The notes under the pieces are model-generated. The model saw nothing but the letters and a program-made list of their open reading frames with translations. It was not told where the DNA came from and searched no databases. From Minisyncoccota bacterium (GTDB lineage Bacteria; Patescibacteriota; Minisyncoccia; UBA6257; JAGOQP01): a DNA stretch of 64,000 bases. The DNA is taken from contig JBAYWE010000002.1 in NCBI GenBank assembly GCA_041674185.1, positions 2,233-66,232 on the forward strand. The letters run 5' to 3'. The position numbers were made by a program, and so were the translations under genes. How positions within the stretch are numbered: position 1 is the first letter of the stretch; every line of letters starts with the position of its first letter. Shown here piece after piece: positions 385-36,973 of this stretch.

Positions 385-788
385 GTATAGCTCCATGGTA
401 GGGAGCGAAGTGCGAATGACCACAATAATAAATTATAATAGTCAGTCGATCTTCGCTGAACCGGAATCTATACATTTTTTCGGGACAACCGAAAAAATTC
501 TTAAACTTTTTTACACTTCACTTAAATTTCTCAAACAGATGATTACGCTATTAACTTGTAGGGTTCAGGATTGCGTTCGTGTACCTTCCAGCCAGTGGAG
601 ATAAGTATATATAAAGTTATCACAAAGTCAAGAGGAAAAAGTAATGAGTAATGAATGGCTAGAAATTACAAAATAACCCCTCAATACCAATATAACGAAA
701 GTTGACCTAAGTCATATATCGTGGTATATTAAGGTCAGTAAAGATTGTGTAATCTTTTAACAAATCCAATAATAATTCGGAGCGAGAA

Positions 789-1247: not shown

Positions 1248-1416
1248 GGTAAAAATGAAGAAATAATTAGGCAGCAACACGCTGCCTTTTTTATTTTTCA
1301 TTCCTACTCACCCTTAATATCTACTGTTTACACCTTAATACTCACCAAAACTTGCAAAATAGACTCAAATGATGTAGTTTAATCGTACACAAATTTAGTA
1401 TCTATATCTCAATATT

Positions 1417-1692
1417 ATGAAGAAAAATATCCACCCAGAATATCACTCCCAAGCAAAAGTTTCTTGCTCATGCGGAAATGTGTTTTATGTTGGCTCAACC
1501 AAAAAAGAAATGGCAATTGAAATCTGTTATGCCTGCCACCCTTTCTTTACGGGTAACGAAAAACTCATTGATACCGCAGGACGCGTAGAGAAATTTAAAG
1601 CAAAAGTAGAGAAAGCAGCGAAAACGACAACGAAAAGCAAGGCGACTAAAAAAGCAGAAAAAAAAGAGAAAAAAGTAGCAAAAAAGAAATAG
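1417..1692 (+). CDS. rpmE: 50S ribosomal protein L31 with Lys-rich C-terminal extension
   Basis: MKKNIHPEY...CSCGN...CHPFFTG motif is typical of L31. The tail is K/A-rich. Confidence 0.85.
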
Positions 1693-1801
1693 CAAAAATT
1701 AGTAGAAAGTGATTAGTACCTAGCGTATAGTAGATTTTGATATACATCAAATCACTATCCCCCTACCAACTAATCACTTTTTTGTTTTAAAAAATAAAAC
1801 T

Positions 1802-2536
1802 ATGGAACAAAATGTAAACAAACTTATTATAGAGGTTCGTGCGGGTGCAGGAGGAGATGAAGCATCTATTTTTGCAGGAAATTTAGTGCATATGTATCAA
1901 CGCTATGCCATCAAAAAGGGGTGGCGCTTTACCGAACTTGATTCAAATCAAACAACACTTGATGGATACAAAAGCTTTATGGGACGCATCGAAGGGCAGG
2001 GAGTGTATACACTTCTCAAACAAGAATCAGGAGTGCATCGTGTACAAAGAATCCCCAAAACTGAAAAAGGAGGGCGTATTCATACCTCCACGGCATCAGT
2101 GGCAATTCTTCCAGTCGTTGATGAACGAGAAGTAGCTATTAATCCTTCAGATTTGGAAATCTCATTCTTCCGCGCTTCAGGACCCGGAGGACAAAACGTC
2201 AACAAAGTAGAAACAGCGGTACGCATTGTACACAAACCAACGGGCGTCGTCGTTGCGTCTCAAAGCGAGCGTTCACAAAACGCAAACAAAGAAAATGCCA
2301 TGGGTGTTTTACGTTCTCGTATTTTTGAAGCCATGCGTGAACAGCAAGTCGCTTCTATGAGCGCGCTGCGTAAAGAACAAATTGGATCCAACGAACGTTC
2401 AGAAAAAATCCGCACCTATAACTTTCCTGAAGATAGAATTACGGATCATCGATCAAACACAAAAGCGCATAATATTGAAAAAGTACTTGAGGGTGAACTT
2501 GATATCTTATTTGACAAAATGAACAAACAAAAATAG
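1802..2536 (+). CDS. prfA: peptide chain release factor 1-like, lacking N-terminal domain 1
   Basis: RAGAGGDEA, the PKT (PxT) tripeptide and the GGQ motif (SGPGGQNVNK) are present. An in-frame stop lies 27 codons upstream with no alternative start, so the protein is only 244 aa. Confidence 0.8.
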   Translation: MEQNVNKLIIEVRAGAGGDEASIFAGNLVHMYQRYAIKKGWRFTELDSNQTTLDGYKSFMGRIEGQGVYTLLKQESGVHRVQRIPKTEKGGRIHTSTASVAILPVVDEREVAINPSDLEISFFRASGPGGQNVNKVETAVRIVHKPTGVVVASQSERSQNANKENAMGVLRSRIFEAMREQQVASMSALRKEQIGSNERSEKIRTYNFPEDRITDHRSNTKAHNIEKVLEGELDILFDKMNKQK

Positions 2537-2552
2537 AAATAATATCCTTCAT

Positions 2553-2572
2553 AAAACCGCATACGCGGTTTT
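2553..2572 (+). terminator. rho-independent terminator after prfA
   Basis: AAAACCGCatacGCGGTTTT hairpin followed by a T-rich tract. Confidence 0.6.
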
Positions 2573-2847
2573 ATGATTGCGTGATGTTATGCATAAAGTC
2601 GTAAAATATTCTTATAAGATAGAATATTCTCACTATGAATAACTTTCCATATTTTTTCGCGATCGCGAAAAAATATGGAAACACATCAAAAGGAAAAAAA
2701 GACAAGAAAACAATATTCAAAATAAATTATATCCCTGCAAGAGATATACCCAAGATATAGAAATTGGATATTAACTTTAAACTAAAGACCTCGACATTTT
2801 TTCATTCGGAAAAAATCGGAGGTCCGACTAACCATCAGAATTAGAAC

Positions 2848-3999
2848 TTATACCTTACTCCCCCATCCCAATCTTATAATTTCTTGAGCTAAAACAAGTG
2901 CGGCATCAGGAGTTGCAAATGCATGCGCGGCCGTAGACATATGATGATATGAGGAAACATCGGTACTAATTTTTTTAAGCTGTGTGAGAAAAAGAACCGG
3001 CGTAAGATTATCTTCTTCAATAATAATACAAGCTCCTTTTTGTGAATATTCAAGTGCATCGTACCACTGGTGGTTATTTGCGGATTCTTTTAATGGAATA
3101 ACAATAGATGGTTTTGCGAATGTTGCAATTTCAAAAAGAAAACTTCCCGAGCGAGACACAATAATATCAGCAGCGATAAACGCGTCCTTAAGATTATCTC
3201 TAAAAAAATCTACCACTTTATATCGTTCTTGATAGGGATGTATTTGATTCTTAAATATAAGATTTAATTCTCGTGACACATCTGAGAAATTTTTCATACC
3301 TGTCTGATGTAACACTTGATAGTGAGGAACCAACTCCGTAGCCGTATCCAATAAGAACGTATTTAATCGCTGTGAACCCTGAGACCCCCCCATAACAAGG
3401 ATAAGAGGTACCTGTGGGTCAAATCCAAATATACGCTTTGCTTGTTCTTGAGTTACATCACTCGGTGTCAGAAGAAACGGACGGACAGGATTGCCCACCA
3501 GAGCTCCTTTATTTCCCTTCACAAACGTAAGTGCGCGTTCGAAGGCAACTCCGACACGAGATGCAAATGGAAAAGAAAGACGATTTGTAAGTCCCGGAAC
3601 AGCATCAGACTCATGAACTATGATCGGAATACGATATATCCACGCAGCAAGAATAACGGGAAGCGCCCCCGTCCCCCCTTTTGAAAACAGAACATCGGGC
3701 ATTATAAATAATAATTTCAATAACGCCTGGAGAAATGAAAACGGAAATTTTATTGCATCAAGTATATTCAGAAACGATGCGTATCGACGCAGCTTACTAC
3801 CCATAATATGACGAATGGTAATTTTCCGTTTCACAAATTCATCACTATACATACCTGGATCTCCAAAGTATGAATAAGAAACACGAACATCGGGATATCG
3901 ACGCATCCCCTTTGTAATTTCATCCGCAACAGCTAGAAGTGGATAAATATGTCCTCCTGTACCCCCTCCTGTATATGCGATTCTGATATGTTTTTGCAT
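2848..3999 (-). CDS. murG: UDP-N-acetylglucosamine--N-acetylmuramyl-(pentapeptide) pyrophosphoryl-undecaprenol GlcNAc transferase
   Basis: N-terminal GGTGGH motif. Size and dcw-cluster context fit MurG. Confidence 0.85.
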   Translation of the reverse strand: MQKHIRIAYTGGGTGGHIYPLLAVADEITKGMRRYPDVRVSYSYFGDPGMYSDEFVKRKITIRHIMGSKLRRYASFLNILDAIKFPFSFLQALLKLLFIMPDVLFSKGGTGALPVILAAWIYRIPIIVHESDAVPGLTNRLSFPFASRVGVAFERALTFVKGNKGALVGNPVRPFLLTPSDVTQEQAKRIFGFDPQVPLILVMGGSQGSQRLNTFLLDTATELVPHYQVLHQTGMKNFSDVSRELNLIFKNQIHPYQERYKVVDFFRDNLKDAFIAADIIVSRSGSFLFEIATFAKPSIVIPLKESANNHQWYDALEYSQKGACIIIEEDNLTPVLFLTQLKKISTDVSSYHHMSTAAHAFATPDAALVLAQEIIRLGWGSKV

Positions 4000-4047
4000 A
4001 AAAAATAAAAGTATTAAGAAATGAGTACTATATAATAAGAAATATAT

Positions 4048-5214
4048 TTAGACAGATTTCGAATGAGTAGTGTGTCTTGATATGTTAGCAATGATACCCA
4101 TCATCGTCAAAGAAACTGCAAGGGCTGTTCCTCCATAACTAATAAATGGAAGAGGGACTCCCGTAAAGGGCAGAATGCCCGAATTCGCAGCAATATGAAT
4201 AAATGTTTGAATCATGATGATTGAGGAAAATCCAAGTACGACTAATTTTGCAAAATCATCATGCATGTGAAGCATGATATCAGATGAACGCCAGAAAAAT
4301 ATAAGATAGAGTCCGATTACCACTAACGACCCAATAAAACCAAATTCTTCAGCTATAACAGAAAAAATAGAATCACCCATCGGTTCAGGAAGAACACTAT
4401 ATTTACTCGTTGATTTTCCAAACCCCACACCAGAGATCCCCCCCGTACCAATAGCTATACGTGACTGATCCACATGAAAAGAATCAGCAGAAGCACCCTG
4501 CAAGGAAAGAGATGGGGCGACCTGATCAGTAATTGCATTCAAAAAGGGAGCAACACGATGAAGACGATAGGGAGTAAAAATCGCCAAAAGTAATACAACA
4601 CTCAGAGCAAGACCCGCTGTCAGTGCAATATGTTTAAATGAGGCCCCGCTAAAGAAAAAAATAACCGCTCCTGCTCCAATAATAATGACAGCCATAGTAG
4701 TTGCGGGTTGAATAAAAATAAGCACACTCACCACACAGGATACAAACAAAAATAAACCATATGATGTCCACGATTGCTTTAATCGTTTCACCGAAATACT
4801 AGAGAAAAGAGATGCTAAATAAAGGATAAAAGTGATTTTGAGAAGCTCTGAGGGCTGAAAAGAGAAAGGACCTAAGTTTATCCATCGATAAGATCCTTTC
4901 GCAGCAAATCCAAAAGGAGTAAAAACTAATATCATTAAAATAATATTGAGAAGAAGCAGTAGAGGCGCAAATTTTTTCCATTTACGATAATACATAAAAT
5001 ACCCAAGACAGAAACCAATGAGTCCGGGAAGCAATCCTTTTAAAAACTGACTCGAAAGAAAAAAGAAACTATCATTATATTTAATCTTCGCAATATCAGA
5101 AGAAGCAGAAGCAAGAAATAAAAAACCAGCTAACACTAAAAATAAAATGACTCCGAGTAAGACATAATCAGCACGATGTCCAGCAAAAATAAATTTGTTC
5201 TTCAAAAATCTCAT
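4048..5214 (-). CDS. ftsW: SEDS-family cell division protein FtsW/RodA
   Basis: Polytopic membrane protein. C-terminal PFISYGGTA and related motifs match FtsW/RodA. Confidence 0.85.
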   Translation of the reverse strand: MRFLKNKFIFAGHRADYVLLGVILFLVLAGFLFLASASSDIAKIKYNDSFFFLSSQFLKGLLPGLIGFCLGYFMYYRKWKKFAPLLLLLNIILMILVFTPFGFAAKGSYRWINLGPFSFQPSELLKITFILYLASLFSSISVKRLKQSWTSYGLFLFVSCVVSVLIFIQPATTMAVIIIGAGAVIFFFSGASFKHIALTAGLALSVVLLLAIFTPYRLHRVAPFLNAITDQVAPSLSLQGASADSFHVDQSRIAIGTGGISGVGFGKSTSKYSVLPEPMGDSIFSVIAEEFGFIGSLVVIGLYLIFFWRSSDIMLHMHDDFAKLVVLGFSSIIMIQTFIHIAANSGILPFTGVPLPFISYGGTALAVSLTMMGIIANISRHTTHSKSV

Positions 5215-5238
5215 AGATAGATATCAAGACACATTATG

Positions 5239-6756
5239 TTATAAACGAGTATTTCTGAGAATCTGACCATACGCTGTTTGAGGACGTGCCGTAACAACTC
5301 CATCTTCCAAAACTCTCTGTCCATTTACCCACACCTGCAAAGGAACAAAATCATGAGACAATAAAACCATATCAGCATACGATCCTCCTTGCAGACGTCC
5401 CCGCTTTGAAAGTCCCATAACCCGAGCGGGAATACCCGTGAGTCGCGCAATTGCAGATTCAATAGAAAGAGACGCATGAGATGCTTTTTCTAAGAAGAGG
5501 GAGAATGTATGTTTCGCACGATCGGGATAAAATTTTGCAGATGTATCAATACTCGGACTATTACTTGCAATAAGAGCGCGATCAGACAAAAGAGCTGTAT
5601 CAATATACGACTGATTTAGATTTTCATAAAAAAGGAATCCGCGCGCATGCGTTGCTTGTAGTAATGAAATAACAGCTTGAGGAACAGTTACTTGTCTATT
5701 TTGTGCAAAATCATACACCGACATACCGTTCACAAACTCAATACCTGGCGCATGAACAATAGTAGCATGGCGTGCATCAATTTTAGGAAATGATTTAATT
5801 AATAAACGAACCACTGCTGGATCGTGGAGAGCATCTATGAGTTTACGACGATCCCATCCACGCATGTCATGCAACAAGAATGAATCAAGAGGAACAACAC
5901 TATATGAAAATGGATTTGTAGAAAAATGAACATCAGCAACCTTTCCTTTTTCACCAATAAAAGCAAGAGATTTTTCAAATTCAGATTCAAATCCAATAAA
6001 AGGACGTAAATGATTAATAAGTACACGAGCAGATACATCTTGTGCAAGACGAACAGCCTCTTGTACACTGGCAAGTAATCCAGCCTTTTCATCACGTACA
6101 TGGGTTGCATATAATCCTTTATAACGAGCGACTACCTCAACTAAGGCACGGAGTTCATGATACGTTGTTCCTTGATAGGGGTAATAACCAAGTCCTGTCG
6201 AAAATCCAAACGCTCCCTGTGCAAGAGAATCAGAGAGAATAGATCGAAACACGCGCAATTCATTCATCGTAAGAGCACGCCACACACGAGGATCTTTTAA
6301 TAAATCTTCTCGAATAACTTTATGCCCCACTAATGTTCCTATATTTACCCCAAATGAAAAAGATTGTGAAAATGAGTCGAGAAGTTCCTGCACCGTACGC
6401 CAATTACTGTTAATAGTGCTTGTCGGAGCCCAATCAGTAAAATGCTGTAAGGGACCATAGAGAGACGGTGCTAAAGAAAATCCACATTGTCCAATAAGAA
6501 TCGTAGTAACTCCCTGGGTAATAAAATTAGCGTGGAGCGGAGAAGAAAATAAAGTTAAATATCTATCCGATGAAGCATTAATATCAATGAATCCAGGACA
6601 AAGATATGCTTCGTTGCCATATATAATTTTATCCGCTTTATAGTTAGGGAAATTTCCTACCGCAATAATCATGGCATCACGAATTAATACATCGCCCTTA
6701 AAAGGAGGAATTCCTGTTCCATCAACAACTTGCACATTTTTAATCAACGTTGTCAT
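5239..6756 (-). CDS. amidohydrolase-family protein (D-aminoacylase-like)
   Basis: Resembles N-acyl-D-amino-acid deacylase / amidohydrolase_3 proteins. The likely start is MTTLIKN; the ORF extends to 6840. Confidence 0.6.
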   Translation of the reverse strand: MTTLIKNVQVVDGTGIPPFKGDVLIRDAMIIAVGNFPNYKADKIIYGNEAYLCPGFIDINASSDRYLTLFSSPLHANFITQGVTTILIGQCGFSLAPSLYGPLQHFTDWAPTSTINSNWRTVQELLDSFSQSFSFGVNIGTLVGHKVIREDLLKDPRVWRALTMNELRVFRSILSDSLAQGAFGFSTGLGYYPYQGTTYHELRALVEVVARYKGLYATHVRDEKAGLLASVQEAVRLAQDVSARVLINHLRPFIGFESEFEKSLAFIGEKGKVADVHFSTNPFSYSVVPLDSFLLHDMRGWDRRKLIDALHDPAVVRLLIKSFPKIDARHATIVHAPGIEFVNGMSVYDFAQNRQVTVPQAVISLLQATHARGFLFYENLNQSYIDTALLSDRALIASNSPSIDTSAKFYPDRAKHTFSLFLEKASHASLSIESAIARLTGIPARVMGLSKRGRLQGGSYADMVLLSHDFVPLQVWVNGQRVLEDGVVTARPQTAYGQILRNTRL

Positions 6757-6909
6757 AGTATATGTATTATAGTATACACTATTTGAGAAGGGTAATATAG
6801 AAAAGAAAACACGATACACCAATAGATAAGAGCTTATCAAAAAAGACCGTCTCTATTGTTCTTAATATGATGTATTTTATACTAAGGATAAAGAATATTC
6901 TAAATTCTT

Positions 6910-7956
6910 TTAGACAAACATACGTGAGAGAAAAAAGATAACCAAACCAAGTCCATTAGAGACCGCAGATATAATCCAAAATCGCATCGTCACCCGTGAC
7001 TCATGCCATCCCAATGCTTCAAAATGATGGTGAATCGGTGTAGACAAAAATATTTTTCGCTTAAAAACTTTTTTAGAGAACAACTGTACTATAACAGACA
7101 GTGATTCGAGTACCAGAATAGGAGCAAAAAACGGGAGGAGTAATGCGGTATTCGTAAGAAGAGCAATAATACCCATAGTAATTCCTAAAGCCATGGATCC
7201 CGTATCTCCCATGAAAAATCGTGCAGGATAAATATTAAACCACAAAAATGCAAGTAACGCCCCAACGATCATGGCAGTGAAAACAGCTAAATCAAATCTC
7301 CCCATAACAAAAGCGACTACAGTCAATGATGCAAATGAAAAGAGAGAGACGCCACCTAATAATCCATCGAGTCCATCAGTTTCATTCGCAGAAAAAGCAG
7401 AAGCAACGATAATAAAAAGAAAAATAGGAATATACCATCCATTTATTTGAAAGAATCCCGCGAATGGAATATATAACGTCGTCCATCCTAATTTGACAAA
7501 AAACCAATATGCCCCAATAAGTCCAATAATAAAATACACTGCTATTTTATGCTTCATAGATATTCCCCCGCCCTTGGGTCCAATACGCAAAATACCTAAA
7601 ATATCATCTAACAGTCCCAGGAGTGCGGCAATTAACATGGCGGCTATAGGAAGATATGTTTCTGCTCTATTGATAATATTAAAATATCCCCATGTATCTC
7701 CAAAAAAATAATTAATAAGGAAAAAAATAAGTGCGAGCGCAAGTACCGAAATCCAAATAATAATCCCTCCCATCGTAGGAGTCCCCTCTTTCCCTTTATG
7801 AAGACTTGAAAATATAGGAGCATCGACAGCAGATCGAATCTGTTTTCCAGCTTTATATTTAAAAAGTAACTTGGTTACCAATGGAGTAATGAGTAATGCA
7901 ATAACGAATGTGATACCCGTCAAAAGTAATAAACGAATCGCCTGAAATTGAAGCAT
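6910..7956 (-). CDS. mraY: phospho-N-acetylmuramoyl-pentapeptide transferase
   Basis: NETDGLDGL, FMGDTGS and HHHFE motifs. Confidence 0.9.
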   Translation of the reverse strand: MLQFQAIRLLLLTGITFVIALLITPLVTKLLFKYKAGKQIRSAVDAPIFSSLHKGKEGTPTMGGIIIWISVLALALIFFLINYFFGDTWGYFNIINRAETYLPIAAMLIAALLGLLDDILGILRIGPKGGGISMKHKIAVYFIIGLIGAYWFFVKLGWTTLYIPFAGFFQINGWYIPIFLFIIVASAFSANETDGLDGLLGGVSLFSFASLTVVAFVMGRFDLAVFTAMIVGALLAFLWFNIYPARFFMGDTGSMALGITMGIIALLTNTALLLPFFAPILVLESLSVIVQLFSKKVFKRKIFLSTPIHHHFEALGWHESRVTMRFWIISAVSNGLGLVIFFLSRMFV

Positions 7957-8033
7957 AAAAAAATAATTAAATAGTATATATATAATACCACGAGCTCATC
8001 TTTTTCTGCAATAACAAAAATAAAAAACAAAAC

Positions 8034-9047
8034 CTATTGTTTCATTTTTTGTGCACATAAAAGCAATCTACTTAAATCTGCAAAACGATCATCACTCCCC
8101 AAAACTTCAACCGCCCATACACTTGAATTTTCATGAAACAAGGCGACTAAATTTCCCCCCGACTCATTAATAAAACCCGTCTTCCCTCCAATAAAATTTT
8201 TTGTTCCGGCAAAATAATTAACATTCAATAAACGAATCGTACGTTGGCGAGTCTGATTCATAATCGGTACTATTTTTTCTCTCGTAATAGCAAGGAGGGT
8301 TGGTTGTGTTTGATATATATACGCAAGCAGAAGAGCTAAATCGGACACAGTAGATTGATTGAGATATGAAAGACCCGATGGTTCTGTAAAAATAGTTTGA
8401 CGCATACCTATCTCTTTTGCTTTCTCATTCATACGAGTAACAAAAGTATCAAATCCAAATGATTCTGCGAGTGCATACGTAGCATCATTACTCGAAACAA
8501 CCAAAGCGGCACGAATAAGATCTTGTACGGTATATGAGGCACCAACCTCAAGAGAGGCATACCCCTCCGCGAGAGCATGGGCATTTTCACTCACCGTAAT
8601 AACTGCCTCAGATTGCATAGACTCCATAGCAACAAGAGTAGTCATTAATTTACTCACCGAAGCAATAGGCCTACTCCCTGTTTCATTTTTTGAAACAATA
8701 ATTTTTCCATGGGTTATATCTTTTACCAGATACGCCGCTACCGATAACGAACAAGAAGAGGCTATAGATCCCACAGAAGGTTTTTCGACAACCGAAGTTT
8801 CTCCTTGAGGAGAGGGTTCTTGTAATGGAACATCAACGGGTAATTCCCGAAAAGAAGCAGTTTGAAATTTATTTTTTTGAGCTAATGACGGCACCGTATA
8901 GGTCCCCAAACGAGTAATTGATTCAGGAAGAGGAGGGGTGGATAAAACAGAACGCTCCTCTGCAACCAAGGCGTGTAACATAAGCGTCGAAAATAATATC
9001 GCAATAACAAGAATGAGAGCCTGGTATTTCATGAATAAGGAATACAA
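8034..9047 (-). CDS. D-alanyl-D-alanine carboxypeptidase (serine-type, PBP5/6 family)
   Basis: Signal peptide; SVSK (SxxK) active-site motif; size fits DacA-like low-MW PBPs. Confidence 0.75.
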   Translation of the reverse strand: MYSLFMKYQALILVIAILFSTLMLHALVAEERSVLSTPPLPESITRLGTYTVPSLAQKNKFQTASFRELPVDVPLQEPSPQGETSVVEKPSVGSIASSCSLSVAAYLVKDITHGKIIVSKNETGSRPIASVSKLMTTLVAMESMQSEAVITVSENAHALAEGYASLEVGASYTVQDLIRAALVVSSNDATYALAESFGFDTFVTRMNEKAKEIGMRQTIFTEPSGLSYLNQSTVSDLALLLAYIYQTQPTLLAITREKIVPIMNQTRQRTIRLLNVNYFAGTKNFIGGKTGFINESGGNLVALFHENSSVWAVEVLGSDDRFADLSRLLLCAQKMKQ

Positions 9048-9056
9048 AAATTATGA

Positions 9057-9692
9057 TTATATACAAGATGTATCAAGATGATCGTCTACTTTTTTTTCAG
9101 AATCAATCGTCACAGGAATAGATGCCGTCTCGTCTGATTCAAAAAAATTCTTCCGTGTTTCCTGATACTGTCCATACTGAGGTAAATCTTCAAGACGCGC
9201 AAGTCCAAGATGAGTGAGAAAATCAGTTGTGACTTCATACAAATACGTATTTCCCTTACTCGTACGTTCCACAAGTCCACGCACCAACAAATTACGCAAC
9301 ATAAAACTAGAATTAACTCCACGAATATAATCAATCTGCGCACGAGTAATAGGACCAAAATATGCCACCAACGATAACGTCTCCACCGCAGAAGGAGTAA
9401 GTTCTTCTTTTAAACTATCCTTTACAAATGATTCAAGAAACGGAGCGAATTGCGGTTTAGTAATAAGCATATAGGCATCCCCTTTTTCCAAGAGAAGTAA
9501 TCCCCTCTGTGAATCCATAAGTGTTTCTTGAAATGCACGAATAATTTCACTCACCTGCTCAGAAGAAACCTGTAATAATCGCATAATCATATCTCGCGAA
9601 ACAGGTTCTCCATATAAGAAAAGTATCGCTTCAAGAGCAGCTATGTGAGACGATGCCGACGATGTGGTTTGTGTATTGATTTCATTATCCAT
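9057..9692 (-). CDS. scpB: segregation and condensation protein B
   Basis: ScpB-like winged-helix sequence (IAALEAILFLYGEPVS...) adjacent to scpA. Confidence 0.8.
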   Translation of the reverse strand: MDNEINTQTTSSASSHIAALEAILFLYGEPVSRDMIMRLLQVSSEQVSEIIRAFQETLMDSQRGLLLLEKGDAYMLITKPQFAPFLESFVKDSLKEELTPSAVETLSLVAYFGPITRAQIDYIRGVNSSFMLRNLLVRGLVERTSKGNTYLYEVTTDFLTHLGLARLEDLPQYGQYQETRKNFFESDETASIPVTIDSEKKVDDHLDTSCI

Positions 9693-9718
9693 ATTATAAA
9701 TTCAAAAATAATTATTAT

Positions 9719-10450
9719 TTACTGCTCAGTAATTTTTTCCATACTAATCTCTCCAAATAATCCTTCTTGTTTTACCCGAATTGTTTGATCTCTCAATAAA
9801 TGCAATAACGCTAAAAATAAAACAATCAATTCTCCCTTTGGACTCGCCGAAGTTACCTGAGAAAAATGAGATATACCATGTGCAATCTTACTTGAAAGTT
9901 CACTAATTTTCTCTTCCAAGTTAATAAGTTGTTTCTCTATATGCTCAGTCTCAACTACAAGAGATCCAAGAGATTGTAATAAATTACCCAGAGCAGTTTC
10001 GAGATGAGACACCGCAAGAGTTGTGGGTGGATAAAAAATCGGAGGCAAGTCCTTCATAAATTCACGAGAGAAAGAAGGAGATGCGGTTTGCCACGATGTG
10101 CGCAAAAGTAAAAAGAGTGGTTTTAAAGCGCTATACATTTTGAGACGTCGCTCTAAATCAACGATATCTTCTTGTTCGTCTGGGGTAAAAGAAATATCGG
10201 GTAAAAGTTCTTTTGATTTAATTAAGACTAAGTGAGAAGCAACAATAAGAAAATCAGATAAAATACGAGGAGAAAGACCCTCCTCTTCTCCAGAAGACGG
10301 TATTTGATTCCGTAATATTTCTATATATGAGAGAAAATCGTTGGTAACTTCTGCTAAACTAATAGTCGTAATATCAAGCTTTTTTGCCTCAATAAGTTCT
10401 AATAGTTTTTCTAGAGGGCCAGAAAATTGCTGTGTTTGCACCTGATACAT
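9719..10450 (-). CDS. scpA: segregation and condensation protein A
   Basis: ScpA-like N-terminus (PLEKLLELIEAKKLDITTISLAEVTNDFL). Confidence 0.8.
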   Translation of the reverse strand: MYQVQTQQFSGPLEKLLELIEAKKLDITTISLAEVTNDFLSYIEILRNQIPSSGEEEGLSPRILSDFLIVASHLVLIKSKELLPDISFTPDEQEDIVDLERRLKMYSALKPLFLLLRTSWQTASPSFSREFMKDLPPIFYPPTTLAVSHLETALGNLLQSLGSLVVETEHIEKQLINLEEKISELSSKIAHGISHFSQVTSASPKGELIVLFLALLHLLRDQTIRVKQEGLFGEISMEKITEQ

Positions 10451-10602
10451 AGAAGTAGTATAGAGGAAAAAAGACGAAGGGTAAAGAAGAAAAAAGACGT
10501 AAATAGTAGGTAATAGAAAAAAGAAAGGTATTGGTAAAAATTTAAATATAAGATATAATCAAAAAATAAGGAGAGGCTTACAAGCCATAAACATCATTTT
10601 TT

Positions 10603-11721
10603 ATGTCCGCAATTTATCGCACGTATCGCCCCAAAAGAATAGAAGATATAGTAGGACAAGAGTCTATCACAACGATTCTACGCAACGCGTCTATACAAGA
10701 TAAATTTGCTCATGCATATTTATTCTATGGACCCCGAGGAACAGGAAAGACGAGCATGGCGCGTATTTTGGCGAAAATAATCAACTGTGAAAAACGCCAA
10801 ACTGATTTAGAATTTAGAAAACAAGGAGAACCGTGTGGAACATGCAGCGCATGTACACAAATAGAATCAGGAAACACACTCGACGTTATTGAAATCGACG
10901 CGGCCTCAAACCGCGGTATTGATGAAATTCGTAATTTAAAAGACAATATAAAAACCATGCCCACTCAATTTGGGCACAAAGTATTTATTATAGATGAAGT
11001 ACACATGCTCACCACACAAGCATTTAATGCCCTTTTGAAAACACTCGAAGAACCTCCTCAGCACGCTATCTTAATTCTTGCAACTACAGAATACGAAAAA
11101 GTTCCTGCAACCATTATCTCTCGAACGCAACGATTTCATTTTAGAAAACTGACTCTCAGTGAGATTATTTCTATGTTGAAAACTATTATCACAAAAGAAA
11201 AGATCACATGCGAACCATCAGCATTAGAAATGATAGCGTATCTCGCAGAAGGAAGTATGCGCGACGCACAATCATTACTTGATCAAATCATTGCCATGCA
11301 AGGATCATATATTACCACGGCCAATGTTGAATTATTACTAGGAAAAACAGATATTCTCAAAATTATAAGTTTATCGAACTCTCTTATTACAAAAGATGGA
11401 AAAAAAGCGCTCCAGTTATTACATGAAATCCATAATGACGGACATAATCTTCCGCAACTCAATAGGGATATAACTGAATATATTCGCCGTGCACTCGCCC
11501 TTCATTTAAACCCCGATTTAGAGAAATTATTTACTCGCGAATTAGCACAAACGGAACTTGCTTCATTACAAAAACATGCAGAACTCATTGAAACAGAATA
11601 TATTATAAAACTTCTCAAACTTCTCATAGAGGCGCAAACAAACATGAGATATAATTCTCTCCCCATTATTCCATTTGAAATTGCGCTGATTGAAGCAACA
11701 CAAAAAGAAACAAAAAAATAG
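10603..11721 (+). CDS. dnaX: DNA polymerase III subunit gamma/tau (short form)
   Basis: GPRGTGKTS Walker A; clamp-loader motifs DEVHML and SRTQRF. Confidence 0.9.
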   Translation: MSAIYRTYRPKRIEDIVGQESITTILRNASIQDKFAHAYLFYGPRGTGKTSMARILAKIINCEKRQTDLEFRKQGEPCGTCSACTQIESGNTLDVIEIDAASNRGIDEIRNLKDNIKTMPTQFGHKVFIIDEVHMLTTQAFNALLKTLEEPPQHAILILATTEYEKVPATIISRTQRFHFRKLTLSEIISMLKTIITKEKITCEPSALEMIAYLAEGSMRDAQSLLDQIIAMQGSYITTANVELLLGKTDILKIISLSNSLITKDGKKALQLLHEIHNDGHNLPQLNRDITEYIRRALALHLNPDLEKLFTRELAQTELASLQKHAELIETEYIIKLLKLLIEAQTNMRYNSLPIIPFEIALIEATQKETKK

Positions 11722-11765
11722 TTGAAAAAATACTATTTTTTTGATAGGGTTCAAACATATCATAT

Positions 11766-11839
11766 TCGGGGATCGTCTAATGGTAGGACAGTGGCCTTTG
11801 AAGCCATTAATTGGGGTTCGAATCCCTGTCCCCGAGCCA
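11766..11839 (+). tRNA. tRNA-Gln (anticodon TTG)
   Basis: Cloverleaf by hand-folding. Acceptor TCGGGGA pairs with TCCCCGA (U1:A72 as in bacterial tRNA-Gln). Anticodon loop is CTTTGAA, T-loop is TTCGAAT, and the 3' CCA is encoded. Confidence 0.85.
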
Positions 11840-13432
11840 GCGTGAACGAATAGATACGAGAGCTTCATTCTGTTCGCAATTTATAGGCAATTTATTTGGT
11901 TCTAACCTTAGATATTCCTCTTGAAGACGAGAGTAATTTTCTCTGATTGGAAAGAACCAAGGATGTGGAACTACACTTAAGATTCCATCGCGTATTTTAA
12001 TGTCATTACCGATTGTTAAAAGAAATTCTTTCCTTGGTTCTAACCTTTTTTTATTAAAAGAATCCATCAGATTTGACATGAAAATAAATGCATTTTTTAT
12101 AGTTTCAACATCCCTTCCTCCAACCTCTGAAGTATTTTTTAGAATGTCATTTAATCGCAATATTTTGCCCTCTATTTCGTTTTTTTCTTTCAAGTAGAAG
12201 GAATCATCAATTAAGCCCCGATACCTCATACGGGTCAATTCTTCGAGTTCCTTGTGCAATTTTATTTGGGTTTCCTCTTGTGTCATTTTAATCTTTTGGG
12301 ATTTTTCAGATGACTCTTTTTCAGTGTCCCCAATTGAGTCTAAAGCCCATGCATAAAATTGTGGGATTAAATCGTATTTTTTTAGTTCACTTGATATCAT
12401 CTGAATAAGACGATCTTCTCGAATTGCTTTTCTTTGAGAACAGATAACTTTATTTGTCTTACGCGTACAATGATAATAAGTATATTCCTTGATCGTTGAG
12501 TCACTCTTTATAATTTTGCGTTTTGTTTCTGCGGTGAACAAACATCCACATTCTCCACATCGAATTATTCCGGTAAAATCGAACGAGTGTTTTTGAGGAC
12601 GAGGTTTTCCTTTTCGTCCTAAAATTATTTGTACCTGATCATATTCTTTGAGGGTAATCATTGCCTCATGATTTCCTTGATAGTGTTTTCCAAAATATTC
12701 AATGTTTCCTGTATAGAAAATGCTCGTAAAAATTTTATATATACCACTACGAGATAATTCTTTATCACCTTGACGTTTACTTTTTCTTGTTCTAAATCCC
12801 CACTCTTTATTTACTATCGTTAATATTTGGGGTGGAGTGTAACAACCAGTAAGCATCATATCCCACATTTTGCGTATGAGAGGGAAACGGATAGGATCAG
12901 TTATAATAGTTTTGTCTTCCTTATTGTTGAGATAGCCGAGAGGAGCTACATTGGGAGCCCATCCTTTTGCTAACTTACTTTCAATTCCGCGTTTTACATT
13001 TTTTCTTAATTCAATGATATATTGATTTGCCATGCCACTTTCAACATTGAATAACAACACATTATCATCCGGCAAGTATTGCCGATCAATCGTTTGAATC
13101 GATTGAAGTATACCTGTTTGCAAAAGCCAGCTTATCTTACCACTATCAATTGGATTTCTTGATAATCGATTGAGCTGCCAACTGAGAATACCACCAGCTT
13201 CACCTGCTTCTATTCTTTTAATCATCTCATCAAATATGGGACGGTTATTTGGTTTCTTTGCTGATTTTGCCTCAGAAAATATTTCAATTACATCTAGATG
13301 TAATTCCTTTGATAGTTGGGTAAGTCTACTAATTTGATCATCTATTGACTGAACCTGACGATCTTCGTTTTCGGATGACTTACGGGCATAAAGGAAATAT
13401 TTGAGGTTTTTGGATGATTGTGTAGGAAACAT
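11807..13432 (-). CDS. large serine recombinase (integrase); 3' end overlaps tRNA-Gln
   Basis: N-terminal resolvase domain (YARKSS...SIDDQ, catalytic Ser) followed by a recombinase domain and a Cys-rich zinc-ribbon region. The C-terminal codons read through the tRNA 3' end. Confidence 0.85.
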   Translation of the reverse strand: MFPTQSSKNLKYFLYARKSSENEDRQVQSIDDQISRLTQLSKELHLDVIEIFSEAKSAKKPNNRPIFDEMIKRIEAGEAGGILSWQLNRLSRNPIDSGKISWLLQTGILQSIQTIDRQYLPDDNVLLFNVESGMANQYIIELRKNVKRGIESKLAKGWAPNVAPLGYLNNKEDKTIITDPIRFPLIRKMWDMMLTGCYTPPQILTIVNKEWGFRTRKSKRQGDKELSRSGIYKIFTSIFYTGNIEYFGKHYQGNHEAMITLKEYDQVQIILGRKGKPRPQKHSFDFTGIIRCGECGCLFTAETKRKIIKSDSTIKEYTYYHCTRKTNKVICSQRKAIREDRLIQMISSELKKYDLIPQFYAWALDSIGDTEKESSEKSQKIKMTQEETQIKLHKELEELTRMRYRGLIDDSFYLKEKNEIEGKILRLNDILKNTSEVGGRDVETIKNAFIFMSNLMDSFNKKRLEPRKEFLLTIGNDIKIRDGILSVVPHPWFFPIRENYSRLQEEYLRLEPNKLPINCEQNEALVSIRSRWLGDRDSNPN

Positions 13433-13472
13433 AATACGTCTGTTTACTTGGGTACAAATAATACCGTTTAAA

Positions 13473-13673
13473 CTATCGAGTGTGCAAGTCCCCACTTTTT
13501 TCTAGGGCATCTTTGAGAGCGCGAATTTTTTCTTTCGTAATCGGCTCATAGACTAACTCTACTAAGCGAATTACTTTAGATGCTTTCTCATACGCTTCGT
13601 TTTTATCTAGCTGTATTCCAAAATGTGTAAAATATAATTCTTGGAATTTTTTTATGTGTTCATCTGATATCAT
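13473..13673 (-). CDS. small hypothetical protein upstream of integrase (possible directionality factor)
   Basis: 66-aa ORF immediately 5' of the integrase on the same strand. No recognisable motif. Confidence 0.3.
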   Translation of the reverse strand: MISDEHIKKFQELYFTHFGIQLDKNEAYEKASKVIRLVELVYEPITKEKIRALKDALEKSGDLHTR

Positions 13674-13847
13674 GCAATCACCCTATATCTTAAGAGAGAA
13701 ATTAGTAGATACGAATATTCCACAATTTTGGGTAAAACACACTCTATAAAGATAATTTGAATGAATTTTACTTGCAGATGTAAATATTCTTACACTATAC
13801 GTAATAGATGAATGAGAATAGATATTTAGTTATTATTTAATAATAGT

Positions 13848-16214: not shown

Positions 16215-17121
16215 GGATAGGATCAGTTTCTTCCAACCGATTAAGTAGTTCTGAATAATGATTAAAATGAAGATCTCTCAAAAAACCGGGTAACTTTTCC
16301 GAATGCTCTTCGGGATTTGACATTTTTTCTTTTATTCTAAGTCTTTTACTCTCAGCATTGTCTCCGAGTCCTAGTCTGTTCATAGATGCAAGATCAACTA
16401 GAACATCCTGTTTGTGCCTAAGGTATGACCCTATTGGTAAAAATTGGTTAGCAAACACTTTTACTTGATGTTCTTTTGCCCAGAAACCACTTGATTTTCT
16501 AAAATTCGGATCTCGAAAATTTGGATGACCAAAGTCAATGCTTTCTATTGGAATTTCCACACTTTGAAAAAGCTTGCATAAATCTAACACCAAATACCAA
16601 TTCCGATGATCTACCTCGAGATAGATTCTTTGTTGATCAATCTTACCAAATTGAGCATTTGAGGCACGAACATAACCAGTTACATCAAAGTAACCTCTTA
16701 TAAATTCTTTTTGTTTTTCCTGATCAGATTGAAAAATCACTTTTGGAATCCTAAAGGAATGATAATCACTGAAATCACCATTTAGTAAATAACTCAACAG
16801 TTGCCAAGTTAAATCAGTATTTCTCCAAACAATCACTAAACTAACCCCTCTATTATCCTCATCATTAATTTTATTAACATCAAGTCCAATCCTTTTGAGT
16901 CTTTCAACGATTCTATCCAAGCTATTAGATAGATAAATTTGAGTATTAAATCTTTTTGTAGGATCGATGGGGCTTACAGCTTCAAGATTTTTAAAAGGAA
17001 AGTCAATTACTAATTTTTGTAATTCAATTGACTTGATAATTGTTCCTCTTCCAATAATCAAACCAAGTAGATAAGCAGCATCCTCACTCAAAAAGGAAGA
17101 GAGTCTATTCGTTAGATCCAT
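16201..17121 (-). CDS. putative restriction endonuclease (large subunit)
   Basis: 306-aa ORF between the MTase and the small PD-(D/E)xK ORF, overlapping both. No clear motif; the call rests on position. Confidence 0.35.
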   Translation of the reverse strand: MDLTNRLSSFLSEDAAYLLGLIIGRGTIIKSIELQKLVIDFPFKNLEAVSPIDPTKRFNTQIYLSNSLDRIVERLKRIGLDVNKINDEDNRGVSLVIVWRNTDLTWQLLSYLLNGDFSDYHSFRIPKVIFQSDQEKQKEFIRGYFDVTGYVRASNAQFGKIDQQRIYLEVDHRNWYLVLDLCKLFQSVEIPIESIDFGHPNFRDPNFRKSSGFWAKEHQVKVFANQFLPIGSYLRHKQDVLVDLASMNRLGLGDNAESKRLRIKEKMSNPEEHSEKLPGFLRDLHFNHYSELLNRLEETDPIRAYE

Positions 17122-18958
17122 ATTTTTTAAAGATTAGAATGTATTCATGAACTTTGTTAATAATAAATTTATATGGGTAACCCAAAGGTTTACAATTGTT
17201 ATATTCTTTTTGCCTATCCCAAATAAGCAAATCTTCGAAAGAAAATCCAATTTCTTCCATCACTCTCACCACATCCATATGAAGAGGATATAATTTACTC
17301 CCTTTTCTAATATCCATCACATTGATCACACAATATCCACCAACGCGAATAGTAGTATATACCTCACTTAAAATAATTCTAAGTTCGTTAAGAAAAGCAT
17401 TATACTGTTCAATATTACCTATATCATTAGGGTCAGATGTATAATTTCTTCCGATTTTTAAATCTGCACTTCTTTTAGCATTTAGTATATTCCAGTAGGG
17501 TGGTGATGTGAGACATAAATCGATTGAGTTTGCTTCAATAAATTTTGAAATCTCACGAGAATCTTTTACAAAATATTTAATCTTCCCATTTTGTTTGTAT
17601 GTTGAGTATTCTTTCGAAAGTCGATCAAAGAATAAATTTTTAAATTCATCGCTAATATCTACTCCAAAAACATTCATGTTTTTTTTTAGACCAGCTATAA
17701 GGGTACTACCGCTCCCTGCAAAACAATCAAGAATATTTTTACCTGATCCGTTAGTAAGAATATCTATTATCTTTTCGGCTAATTGTATGGGAAAAATTGC
17801 AGGATGTTTTAATCCAGTTTCCTCTTGATTTTTTGTTACATTTCTCCAAATACTAAACGAATTTTGTAGCCAAGAGTTACCATCAAGTTTATTTGCTCTT
17901 TTCATTGCTGATTGAGTCTCGACGAAATGCAACCTCTCCTCAGTAATATTAGGATCATCTTCATCTTGGTTAATACTTTTATACCTCTTATGTGTCTTCT
18001 TGAATAAACTAACTTTTCCTTTTTTTGATAATATCTGTTCTATTTCGCCAATTGGAATGATTCCTTCATTATTATAACTCAGTAAGATATATTTTGCATT
18101 TACTTGCGTAATTAATTCATCTAATGCCTTGGATGCTCGTCCTTTGTAACAATATTCCGATAATTGATTTTTGTAATCACGAACGCCAGTTTTGCCAGTA
18201 ATAATTGGTTTTTTATCCTCGAACCATCCCTCAGCAATCAGTTCCAATAAAAAATAATTTGAAGCATATTGACGGCTATTATAAGGAGGATCAAGGTACA
18301 GAATATCAATGCTTTTCAATTCTTTGATAAGTTGATTAGCCTCAGACTTAAACGCCTTGTTTTTCCTTGAGCTATGGATTATTTCAGGTGCAGTAATTAT
18401 TAAAGGTTTTGTTGCTCTTTTATCCCAAGTTTTTAGATAGGCTCCATATGTTCCAGCAACATTAGAAACAAGATTAACAGCCTCAAGAAGTGATGTAATC
18501 AAATAGTAATATTCTAGTTCAGAGATCAGCTGATTTTGTTTCCATTCATGTATGATTTCTCTAACAGCATCTATCTTTTGACCATTCTCATTTGAAAAGT
18601 ATTTTCTTTTCCCATTTCCATCAGGACAATAATTATTATAAATAAATCCCTTCTTAATAGGAAGACTATTTAAATAGTTGATGACATAATTATTATCCAA
18701 ATCGGGAACTGCGAGATGTTTCCTTAACTTCAAGAATTTTGGTTCTTCATTTGTCTCTATATATGTTTTTGCGAGAGCAAATGAAAACTCAAGGAAATCA
18801 TTTGCGATGACCGTAAAACCTTGTCTCTTGAAATGTTTGGCAACCGTGGTAGTGCCACTAAATAAGTCAACAAACTTAGCTCCGTGATTCAATTCGGTTT
18901 TTTTTACACCGTTTTCAATTAAATCCAATAATTTTTCTTTACCGCCGTAATAACGCAT
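17105..18958 (-). CDS. fused double DNA methyltransferase (Dam-like D12 domain + gamma-class N6A/N4C domain)
   Basis: N-terminal half has RYYGGK, FVDLFSGTTT and DPPYN. C-terminal half has HPAIFP, FAGSGST and SPPYWN. Confidence 0.8.
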   Translation of the reverse strand: MRYYGGKEKLLDLIENGVKKTELNHGAKFVDLFSGTTTVAKHFKRQGFTVIANDFLEFSFALAKTYIETNEEPKFLKLRKHLAVPDLDNNYVINYLNSLPIKKGFIYNNYCPDGNGKRKYFSNENGQKIDAVREIIHEWKQNQLISELEYYYLITSLLEAVNLVSNVAGTYGAYLKTWDKRATKPLIITAPEIIHSSRKNKAFKSEANQLIKELKSIDILYLDPPYNSRQYASNYFLLELIAEGWFEDKKPIITGKTGVRDYKNQLSEYCYKGRASKALDELITQVNAKYILLSYNNEGIIPIGEIEQILSKKGKVSLFKKTHKRYKSINQDEDDPNITEERLHFVETQSAMKRANKLDGNSWLQNSFSIWRNVTKNQEETGLKHPAIFPIQLAEKIIDILTNGSGKNILDCFAGSGSTLIAGLKKNMNVFGVDISDEFKNLFFDRLSKEYSTYKQNGKIKYFVKDSREISKFIEANSIDLCLTSPPYWNILNAKRSADLKIGRNYTSDPNDIGNIEQYNAFLNELRIILSEVYTTIRVGGYCVINVMDIRKGSKLYPLHMDVVRVMEEIGFSFEDLLIWDRQKEYNNCKPLGYPYKFIINKVHEYILIFKKYGSNE

Positions 18959-23453: not shown

Positions 23454-24248
23454 ATGATCCCCTACTTTGGTGGTAAATCATATTTGGCGGATTGGGTGAT
23501 TTCTCATTTCCCAGAGAACTATAAAAACTTATCCTATTGTGAAGTATTTGGAGGAGGAGGGTGGGTGCTCTATAAAAAAGAACCTAGTCGCATTGAAACA
23601 TATAATGATCTCAATAAAAATATTGTTAATCTGTTTCGAGTCATTCGAGATCGTTTTCCTGAATTTAATCATCGAGCGAATTGGTCGTTACACAGCAGAG
23701 AGTTATTTCAAGAAGCGAAAGCAAAATTACAAGATGATAAAACACTAAGTGATATTGAACGAGCAATTCATTACTCAATTCTACAAACACAATCATTCTC
23801 CGGAGATGGTCATTCATGGACATATCGTGTATCTCCCAGTCATGTGTTTTCTGGAAAATGGTTGCCTCTGTTGAAACGACTTGAGTTAATCAATATTCGA
23901 TTGAAGCGTGTGCAAATCGAATGTCTTGATTTTGAAAAAGTAATTCAAAAATATGATTCCAAAGACACACTCTTTTATCTTGATCCTCCATACTTCGGGA
24001 AAGAAAAATATTATCAGAAAGAAGAGGTCTATTTCGGAAATGAAGATCATATACGATTAGCAACTACGCTCCACAATATCAAAGGAAAATTTCTTCTCAG
24101 TTATTATGATCATCCCAAAATCAAAAAGCTATATCGTGGAAATCGTATTGTGCAAAAATGCATTCCTAAGTATGGATCTAAAAGTAAATTGGTAGAAGCG
24201 ATTGCTACAAAACCACGAGCGAAAGAAATACTTATTATGAATTACTAA
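23454..24248 (+). CDS. DNA adenine methyltransferase (Dam/D12 class, orphan)
   Basis: PYFGGKSYL, EVFGGGGWV and DPPY motifs. Confidence 0.8.
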   Translation: MIPYFGGKSYLADWVISHFPENYKNLSYCEVFGGGGWVLYKKEPSRIETYNDLNKNIVNLFRVIRDRFPEFNHRANWSLHSRELFQEAKAKLQDDKTLSDIERAIHYSILQTQSFSGDGHSWTYRVSPSHVFSGKWLPLLKRLELINIRLKRVQIECLDFEKVIQKYDSKDTLFYLDPPYFGKEKYYQKEEVYFGNEDHIRLATTLHNIKGKFLLSYYDHPKIKKLYRGNRIVQKCIPKYGSKSKLVEAIATKPRAKEILIMNY

Positions 24249-36605: not shown

Positions 36606-36775
36606 GGGCGCATGGCTTTCCTCGTACAGAGAATTCTATACGAGGAAATCTTATAGCAAACATGTTGCGATAAGTATATGCGCATATATTCCCTTGCGGG
36701 ACAGAACAAAGCCAGTAGTCATCATGACACAGTTGTATATTCCGTAGAATATATATTCGGGCCACTTATAAAAAT

Positions 36776-36900: not shown

Positions 36901-36973
36901 CGCCTTCATTCCGGTTTTAAATGCGGCATTATCCTGCTTCTGATAATAGATAATTCATACGATCAGAAGCATA

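Follow-up and report, generated by a model that had tools for sequence, protein, structure and literature searches.

A large serine recombinase gene ending antisense to tRNA-Gln at the border of a probable integrative element in a Minisyncoccota bacterium

The serine integrases characterised so far target protein-coding genes or intergenic positions and use a common core of 5-8 bp, and the tRNA islands of tyrosine integrases carry 25-76 bp of identity (PMC8092301). Recombinases with the att site in their own gene were considered exclusive to archaea in a 2021 review, the int gene and the att site of these "suicidal" integrases forming one compact module (PMC8371274). In mycobacteriophage integration-dependent immunity, attP lies within a coding sequence and integration changes the C-terminus of the protein (PMC8092301). 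A large serine recombinase (LSR) is carried by 27 of 937 tycheposon-like elements, whose att anatomy is not described in the available part of that source. No description of serine-recombinase/tRNA elements of the present family or arrangement in bacteria of the candidate phyla radiation (CPR) was found in the full-text literature searched, in which subscription journals are thinly covered. The locus analysed here is a 64-kb stretch of a Minisyncoccota contig (JBAYWE010000002.1), referred to as the window, in which an LSR gene runs into the 3' end of tRNA-Gln(UUG). Judged from the sequence, the block bounded at 11.83 and 47.60 kb was very probably integrated by this LSR into the 3' end of the tRNA gene, and the interpretation as an integrative element that a sequence-only reading had given earlier is supported.

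The locus combines features of several described systems. Like the tyrosine-integrase tRNA islands (Islander; P4, AICE, tycheposon), it has a tRNA 3' end as target, an element that regenerates the end of the gene, an integrase gene beside the tRNA-proximal junction and a site that is a variable hotspot. Unlike them, the enzyme is a serine recombinase and only the discriminator and CCA are replaced; the identity amounts to about 4 bp, so there is no displaced tRNA fragment at the far end. With the archaeal integrases of SSV1, pTN3 and pT26-2 it shares an attP in the integrase coding sequence, a tRNA target and a product altered by integration. However, the SSV-type tyrosine recombinase (Phage_integr_3) is split into inactive N and C halves, whereas the window LSR loses about 30 residues and keeps every Pfam domain, with the conserved part as far as W532, on one open reading frame (ORF), a tail-swapping rather than a suicidal arrangement. 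As in the integration-dependent immunity of BPs, Brujita and M. abscessus prophages, attP lies in a coding sequence and a C-terminus is tied to the integration state; in those phages the repressor spans attP and the integrase is a tyrosine enzyme, whereas here the serine integrase itself spans attP. The window LSR resembles the integrases of A118/LI, TP901-1, phiC31 and Bxb1 in its catalytic, recombinase and zinc-ribbon domains followed by a long helical segment, and its family resembles the phage serine integrases in short att sites with a core of 4-8 bp and, as far as 9 of 13 native attP sites have a consistent centre, in imperfect dyad symmetry, the window core agreeing in shortness with the published range. 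It is, however, only 22-28% identical to any of them. The family differs from A118 in an extra conserved region of about 70 aa and a tail of about 30 aa beyond the A118-aligned part, and from characterised serine integrases in having attP within its own ORF, targeting tRNA 3' ends and being hosted by Patescibacteria.

The left junction is formed by the following features.

11766-11839, plus strand: intact tRNA-Gln(UUG) (ARAGORN; Rfam RF00005, 62 bits, gathering score 29)
11807-13432, minus strand: large serine recombinase, 541 aa plus stop (PF00239, PF07508, PF13408)
11834-11837: attL common core GAGC, the same 4 bp as at attR, within unrelated flanks
13473-13673, minus strand: conserved 66-aa ORF directly upstream of the LSR (by tblastn present at 48 of 86 LSR loci)

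The tRNA-Gln, one of three tRNAs detected in the window by ARAGORN, starts 45 nt 3' of dnaX (10603-11721), and the left flank is core chromosome because scpA, scpB and cell-wall genes are located upstream of dnaX. The LSR frame is open on the minus strand over 11807-13495 (GTG at 13495), although the ATG at 13432 is the likelier start, and the 541-aa product is identical to an NCBI protein of Candidatus Paceibacterota, encoded on a 66.9-kb contig and annotated as 'recombinase family protein'. The Resolvase (PF00239, E 1.8e-17), Recombinase (PF07508, 26.1 bits, cut-off 21.1) and Zn_ribbon_recom (PF13408, 42.5 bits) domains are present in this protein, and no Phage_integrase domain was detected by Pfam at the junction. 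Residues R17, S19 and S20 (motif YARKSS) are invariant among 30 family members. A family profile searched against PDB sequences matched the C-terminal domain of A118 integrase (4kis, positions 210-460, E 3.6e-11) and also the catalytic domains of TP901-1 (3bvp) and 3g13. The last ten codons of the LSR, TGG CTC GGG GAC AGG GAT TCG AAC CCC AAT (WLGDRDSNPN), and the TAA stop (11809-11807) are the exact reverse complement of tRNA-Gln 11807-11839, so that the edge of the variable loop, the T-arm, the acceptor 3' strand, the discriminator and CCA are read antisense. Trp532 (TGG), invariant across the family, complements CCA, and residues 533-541 and the stop come from the antisense strand of the tRNA. 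On the model, the last four bases of the tRNA (11836-11839, discriminator G73 plus CCA) would be element-derived, because the tRNA-Gln of relatives ends ..AGC followed by an A-rich trailer without CCA. The 66-aa ORF, which has no Pfam or PHROG match, forms part of the integration module, perhaps as a regulator or directionality factor.

A protein search has revealed 3182 LSR homologues at E<=1e-10. The best 120 of these are 57-70% identical, with source names almost all from Patescibacteria, and their C-termini share ..TEALASVR-x-R/H-W and then diverge. Among these best 120, tRNA-type tails L/R-x-x-DSN(P/L/Q/R), which correspond to the antisense reading of a tRNA T-arm, were found in 71 (69 recognised by pattern, together with P0010 and P0053, whose sequences break off after DSN), a stop within 5 residues after the Trp in 36, and a native, mutually conserved tail in 12 (for instance P0003, RW-LTIVDDVRNQISLNLSEGQDIHVPGLNPTQFNLLQ). 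If the native tail is what the ORF encodes in an unintegrated element, its codons would be expected at the far end after integration, on the LSR strand. When native LSR tails were compared with the window by tblastn, two minus-strand matches were obtained, near 47.6 kb and 45.2 kb, and the features of this end are as follows.

47598-47503, minus strand: attR P-arm, a remnant of the native C-terminal tail, LTIVDDVDNSITEASLLGKHIHIPINPSDYG plus stop, 31 codons in frame (tblastn against the P0003 tail)
47596-47599: common core GAGC at attR; the host trailer AGAAAAAAATTTATTC comes next, and the LMWPc gene lies beyond it
11836-47597: inserted DNA, 35,762 bp in all (integrative element or accreted array)
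45119-45214, minus strand: inner relic of a second native tail, VDNVGNQISVNLSDGKDIHGLDLNPTQVNLLQ plus stop, in frame (tblastn E 2e-15)

The outer match (47598-47518) reads LTIVDDVDNSITEASLLGKHIHIPINP (E 1.9e-5) and runs on to a stop at 47505-47503. The minus strand of attR is ..TTTTTTT CTG CTC ACC ATC GTG GAT GAT.. and the tRNA junction on the LSR strand is ..CGT TCA CGC TGG CTC GGG GAC..; attL and attR share G CTC alone (GAGC on the plus strand, 11834-11837 and 47596-47599). When the LSR side of attL was joined to the tail side of attR, the sequence ..SIRSRW-LTIVDDV.. was obtained, which matches the family native tail RWLTIVDDVR. The reciprocal halves gave ..GGTTCGAATCCCTGTCCCCGAG joined to CAGAAAAAAATTTATTC.., with the LMWPc start codon 35 nt on. 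The attB reconstructed in this way (..CCCCGAG followed by CAGAAAAAAATTT) is a tRNA-Gln without encoded CCA and with an A-rich trailer, and comparable tRNA-Gln genes are present in L005, L017, L020, L045, L171 and L174. The reconstructed sites are ..GTTGTCAACATCATCCACGATGGTGAGCCAGCGTGAACGAATAGATACG.. (attP) and ..GGTTCGAATCCCTGTCCCCGAGCAGAAAAAAATTTATTC.. (attB), or as 60-mers GTTGTCAACATCATCCACGATGGTGAGCCAGCGTGAACGAATAGATACGAGAGC and GGGGTTCGAATCCCTGTCCCCGAGCAGAAAAAAATTTATTCAAAAAAG, respectively. Matching cores occur today only at the outer pair, 11,834-7 and 47,596-9.

These results uphold all that the sequence-only reading had proposed, with one boundary shifted. The encoding of the last LSR codons by the reverse complement of tRNA-Gln was confirmed for ten codons plus TAA, and the proposed attL-type junction between a large serine recombinase and the tRNA 3' end stands. 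The expected lack of a long direct repeat was also found, as no second copy of the tRNA-Gln 3' end exists in the 64-kb window at <=3 mismatches and the common core is just the 4 bp GAGC. Accessory cargo had been proposed up to about 47.4 kb; its content (restriction-modification (R-M), nucleases, a diversity-generating retroelement (DGR), a ubiquitin-like (Ubl) system and ATPases) stood in the Pfam and PADLOC analyses, but the boundary had to be moved to 47,597.

DnaX homologues at 91% identity (P0121) were located on L171 (ENA) and on L172 and L173 (metagenome-assembled genomes from NCBI). In blastn comparisons, L171 positions 5-5882 aligned with 5861-11709 of the window, 8330-9835 with 48164-49670 and 10464-12862 with 49742-52111, these flanks being 76-81% identical in nucleotide sequence. 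From dnaX/tRNA-Gln to the MFS/ABC-F flank there are 2.45 kb in L171 versus 36.5 kb in the window, and the block is absent in L171 and L172. Comparison with related genomes was the refuting test set for the insertion beforehand, and it turned out in its favour: L171 and L172 do not share the gene order, and their tRNA-Gln leads to the 48.2-kb flank in 2.45 kb. The 2.45-kb stretch of L171 contains a tRNA-Gln(UUG) without CCA and three small ORFs, and in L174 (DnaX 79%) about 5 kb of other genes lie between tRNA-Gln and the MFS gene. Because of this differing content, the site is a variable hotspot. Relatives of the L171/L172 type also carry a 231-aa ORF between dnaX and tRNA-Gln (interval 5882-8330 of L171). 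The body of the window tRNA-Gln is near-identical to that of the more distant L005. This closest species-representative genome (DnaX 60%) was discarded as uninformative on the downstream flank, a scaffold gap of 100 N being located directly after its tRNA-Gln.

Contigs with a native-tail LSR show the corresponding joined order. In L085/L086, the LSR is 68% identical to that of the window, and the BamC-like protein (88%), Por_Secre_tail protein (72%), 66-aa ORF (62%), Zn-ribbon protein (69%) and DUF932 protein (98% over 180 aa) also have counterparts in the window. The genes are ordered BamC-like, Por, cargo, 66-aa ORF, LSR with tail, cargo, Zn-ribbon (minus), cargo and DUF932 (minus), which is the order produced by joining the 11.8-kb and 47.6-kb ends of the window. 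Another native-tail contig, L087, shares with the window the VirD4-like ATPase (80%), the PD-(D/E)XK nuclease (64%), DUF932 (74%) and Dam (63%), and E1/BubE genes are common to both.

A metagenome scan with the family alignment was used to obtain 80 loci, and 86 loci were scored when L085-L090 were added; more than 500 LSR-family loci were recovered by one scan. A tRNA antisense to the LSR 3' end was called by ARAGORN at 45 of the 80 metagenome loci (Asn 24, Gln 9, His 3, Ser 3, Glu 2, Trp 2, Pro 1 and Lys 1), and at 44 of these 45 the register of TGG on CCA is exact, the terminal A of the tRNA complementing the first base of the invariant Trp codon. A tRNA-like tail without tRNA call was observed at 15 further loci, and native or other tails at 23 of the 86 scored loci. 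A DnaX scan of species-representative genomes indicated that the dnaX-tRNA-Gln order is kept in many Patescibacteria, and in L039 (Buchananbacteria) and L026 an LSR 28-32% identical converges on and overlaps the tRNA-Gln 3' end downstream of dnaX in the same frame. Because of this repeated arrangement and of the TGG/CCA register at 44 of 45 loci, the overlap between LSR and tRNA is not due to chance.

The far-end remnant is likewise found elsewhere in the family. A hidden Markov model of the native tail has revealed remnants on the same strand as the integrated LSR, 7-11 kb upstream of it, at 10 loci (L096, L117, L122, L133, L136, L147 with two remnants, L149, L151, L154 and L157), element sizes that are biased by the 10-kb flank limit. 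These remnants start one to three codons past the Trp position. Identity between attL and attR extends for 4-8 nt right after the TGG position in each of the 10 loci; at attR this position is occupied by CTG, TAG, ATG, GTG or TTG, and by TGG once, the native trailer being non-CCA in 10 of 11. The consensus of 13 native attP sites is ..TCTGTTCGTGCACGn TGG CTCCGCATCGTGAACGAnGTTAGAAC.., and in 9 of the 13 the best dyad centre falls between nt 2 and 3 after TGG. Tails at attP or attR are in frame for 26-34 codons, with synonymous variation in the ..VRTII..YIYIPDLR.. motif, which suggests that the peptide is under selection and that the elements cycle regularly between both states. The arrangement of attP in the ORF and target at a tRNA end is a property of the whole family and is not peculiar to this locus. 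An AlphaFold2 model of the native-tail homologue P0109 (11 sequences) had a mean pLDDT of 62, and of 38-58 in the tail, which is too weak to place the docking of the tail.

Some loci of the family depart from the usual pattern. After the Trp, the LSRs of L157, L162 and L122 show neither a tRNA-type nor a native tail (for instance WLPSPEIIIP.. and WLPEAYITRTIPK followed by a stop), although L157 and L122 still carry a proper tail remnant upstream, and the L157 junction GGGCTGGGGAGCCA resembles an isolated tRNA acceptor end; these unusual tails may mark secondary or degraded target sites. In L147, two tail remnants are placed in series 1.08 kb apart (2496-2582 and 3576-3656), and a sequence similar to the final LSR codons (GTGAATAAAACAGAAATCGAG..) precedes the outer one, which thus resembles the leftover of an LSR 3' end that carried attP and had not recombined.

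In the proposed mechanism, attP lies inside the LSR ORF, with the last conserved codons (..S-V/I-R-x-R-W) as the P' arm and the first codons of the native tail of about 30 aa (L-x-I-V-D/N-D/N-V-R-T-I-I..Y-I-Y-I-P-D-L..) as the P arm. A 2-bp staggered exchange would take place at the dinucleotide two bases past the Trp codon, within the 4-8 bp of identity between attP and the tRNA acceptor. In the window, the crossover dinucleotide would be TC (GA on the tRNA strand), that is, tRNA nt 71-72 (11834-11835 and 47596-47597), a placement which we favour with some reserve and which was chosen because of the dyad centre of 9 of the 13 native attP sites. Integration would keep the tRNA intact, since the ..C-TGG codons of the element would supply the discriminator and CCA in place of a non-CCA trailer, whereas the integrated LSR would lose its native tail to attR and read the tRNA antisense until the stop (WLGDRDSNPN). 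Excision by attL x attR recombination would give the LSR its native tail back, and the tRNA its trailer. Several features of the proposal can be read from the compared sequences: how the junction is built, the remnant at the far end, the lack of the block in congeneric genomes, joined ends that are colinear with native-tail relatives, and the family-wide TGG=CCA register. Beyond these, the element may be mobile at present, and the tail or the 66-aa ORF could have a role in the process.

It is conceivable, although we hold it to be unlikely, that the tail swap serves the enzyme as an inherent switch of directionality. The full-length LSR of the excised circle, with its tail of about 30 aa (..VRTII..YIYIPDL..), would be the integration-competent form, and the integrated, tail-less LSR, transcribed head-on against the tRNA, would be excision-prone or silenced, possibly with the 66-aa protein as partner. 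If true, the integration state would be encoded in the LSR C-terminus without a classical recombination directionality factor, and a bacterial serine recombinase would thereby parallel the 'all-in-one' suicidal integrase module of archaea. The idea that a C-terminal swap controls directionality is testable.

Several observations weigh against a simple insertion of one mobile element. In the closest relatives, tRNA-Gln(UUG) differs in all stems and small genes replace LMWPc, and therefore the whole dnaX-to-MFS interval has been replaced and not simply filled; this interval, tRNA included, appears to have been exchanged between lineages. No terminal repeats were found in any of the LSR-family loci examined, native-tail contigs included. 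An exact-match scan of JGI metagenomes with the predicted attB gave 0 hits and no isogenic empty site, and no circular or attP-form contig of this element was present in the databases searched. At the expected centre, the reconstructed window attP reaches only its second-best dyad symmetry (10 of 22 positions). Finally, the tails of the closest LSR homologues resemble the relic at 45.2 kb more than they do the 47.6-kb remnant, and therefore the history was not a single clean insertion. This relic lacks the core and first codons, has neither GAGC nor TGG at its proximal end and abuts the 3' end of the OLD gene. Its reading as the 3' end of an LSR pseudogene including the P' arm was tried, and BLAST supports the tail part alone. 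At 47480-47502, just inside the outer attR, the P-arm/core recurs as a weak copy of 23 nt (78% identity), and both relic and copy suggest repeated integrations or accretion at tRNA-Gln. With the inner relic and a second LSR at 33.2-35.1 kb, the block is probably composite, and tandem accretion followed by deletion best explains the inner relic.

That the block as a whole is a tandem accreted array and not one element is a possibility to be taken seriously, even if we do not favour it. An older element would have left the 47.6-kb attR and the HTH/OLD genes (45.3-47.6 kb), the present LSR element would have been inserted later beside the tRNA with the 45.2-kb relic as its attR, and a deletion would then have removed the older LSR and the inner core; the outer sites would mobilise the composite. 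Over 32 aa, the relic shares 72% identity with the tail of P0003, which is the native-tail homologue closest to this LSR, versus about 48% for the 47.6-kb tail, and the relic adjoins the Zn-ribbon gene, where the native tail is expected if the OLD/HTH segment is absent. Two serial tail remnants also exist in L147, the copy at 47480-47502 would be a third P-arm-like sequence, and in staphylococcal cassette chromosome (SCC) elements the Ccr-type serine recombinases are known to give tandem arrays. However, an extra deletion is needed to account for the lack of a recognisable core in the inner relic, and the VirD4/PDDEXK/DUF932 backbone and the LSR-proximal genes are common to single contiguous relatives. 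In addition, attL and attR are normally not integration targets of serine integrases (PMC3783163). Integration of the block by the LSR, in one or several steps, has also to be weighed against a fixed island that is no longer mobile, its LSR and att junctions being fossils kept by drift or for the benefit of the cargo. This is rather doubtful, although the sequence occurs in one sample only without alternative junction contigs, no empty site or circle was detected, and the block is far larger than the 7-11 kb complete elements elsewhere, a size range subject to the flank limit given above. The LSR ORF is full length with all family-invariant residues, the 31-codon attR tail is in frame, both cores are identical, and purifying selection on attR tails across the family implies regular cycling.

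A prophage with a phage-type serine integrase is a very improbable explanation for the block. The LSR has distant similarity to phage serine integrases, and DUF932 and a 1009-aa ATPase match PHROG families, but these are of unknown function, and Pfam revealed no gene for capsid, portal, tail or lysis, nor did PHROGs on ten unannotated or backbone ORFs, the small ORFs not all being covered. The sole terminase-like signal is a P-loop match inside a VirD4-like ATPase. An IMG/VR scan with the window LSR alone gave no relative, and with the family profile only 2 contigs with distant relatives, versus more than 500 metagenome loci. We read the block as non-viral and rich in defence genes, either an integrative element or an accreted array. 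A coincidental read-through, with the LSR acting elsewhere as a resolvase or invertase, is hardly credible: the ten tRNA-encoded residues are without known function, but the exact TGG/CCA register at 44 of 45 independent loci with at least 8 tRNA types, the matching tail remnants at the other end of the elements and the relatives without the block all stand against it.

Contigs of the source sample (Logan SRR6484325) tile the window, and exact-protein look-ups of DnaX, LSR, LMWPc and a 278-aa ORF of the block matched only this sample, without alternative junctions. Contig breaks inside or beside tRNAs were considered as an empty-site allele and rejected, as their positions fit a tRNA core shared with another organism. 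Two breaks, at about 42490 and 43490, lie on both sides of the 278-aa ORF (42632-43468, no family match), which hints at strain-level variation or a repeat; the remaining breaks fall at tRNA-Gln and tRNA-Ser.

Few genetic tools exist for CPR bacteria. Targeting of tRNA genes is a hallmark of tyrosine integrases, and here a very large serine family of Patescibacteria does so with the att site in its own gene. As the Trp codon and the adjacent tRNA are enough to deduce attP and attB, the family offers a large panel of candidate orthogonal integrase/site pairs, usable also for CPR bacteria and amounting to thousands of enzymes if the switch reading is true. The native-tail remnant is a simple delimiter for islands without direct repeats, and the locus shows the movement of defence cargo (R-M, OLD, Ubl/E1 and DGR) in streamlined CPR genomes. 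The main genes inside the block are listed below.

38893-42540: element backbone, in the same arrangement as in the native-tail relative L087
38893-40227, minus strand: VirD4/TrwB-like ATPase (80% identical to L087)
40672-41511, plus strand: PD-(D/E)XK nuclease (64% identical to L087)
41584-42540, plus strand: DUF932 protein (74% identical to L087, 98% to L085/L086)
17105-18958: R-M methylase, fused D12/N4-N6 type II
23454-24248: Dam
31100-33120: Ubl/E1 operon, Multi_ubiq / DUF6791-ThiF (E1-like) / DUF6527 (BubE)
33192-35147, minus strand: second LSR, 651 aa, with Resolvase, Recombinase and two C-terminal HTH_3 domains and no Zn_ribbon_recom match
35553-38804, minus strand: DGR, with reverse transcriptase (35553-36605) and bAvd (36974-37309)
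43646-44731: PDC-S26-like protein
45279-47003: OLD nuclease

Other cargo includes RNase H-like, DUF4145 and RuvC-like proteins, non-specific endonuclease, GIY-YIG and PD-(D/E)XK nucleases, and helix-turn-helix (HTH) regulators, among them an HTH_36 protein with a weak DnaD_N match. The VirD4-like gene at 38.9 kb was considered as a host core gene, and this was rejected because of its 80% identity and kept neighbours in L087. About 22 Patescibacteria genomes have a chromosomal VirD4/TrwB-like gene immediately before dnaX (loci L006-L084), with 40-46% identity, and in the window chromosome this place is taken by scpAB. A second VirD4/TrwB-like ATPase of the island is encoded at 25720-28749. No relaxase or pore component of a type IV secretion system was detected by Pfam among ORFs of >=90 aa, and it can only be speculated that transfer of the element depends on a VirD4/FtsK-like ATPase, of which two VirD4/TrwB-like copies are present.

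The second LSR is 26% identical to the junction LSR over 188 aa only, and could be the sign of a nested element, or else work as an invertase or transposase. The Ubl/E1 operon is 46-56% identical to L087 13323-15206, an element with an LSR of the same family, and thus the ubiquitin-like conjugation system travels on these CPR elements. The DGR has a template repeat of 125 nt (36776-36900) and a variable repeat (37381-37505) that are 82% identical. The variable repeat is located at the 3' end of a 471-aa target with a pilin-type N_methyl signal and an FGE-sulfatase (C-type lectin-like) domain, and a local GC peak of 0.43 coincides with this retroelement.

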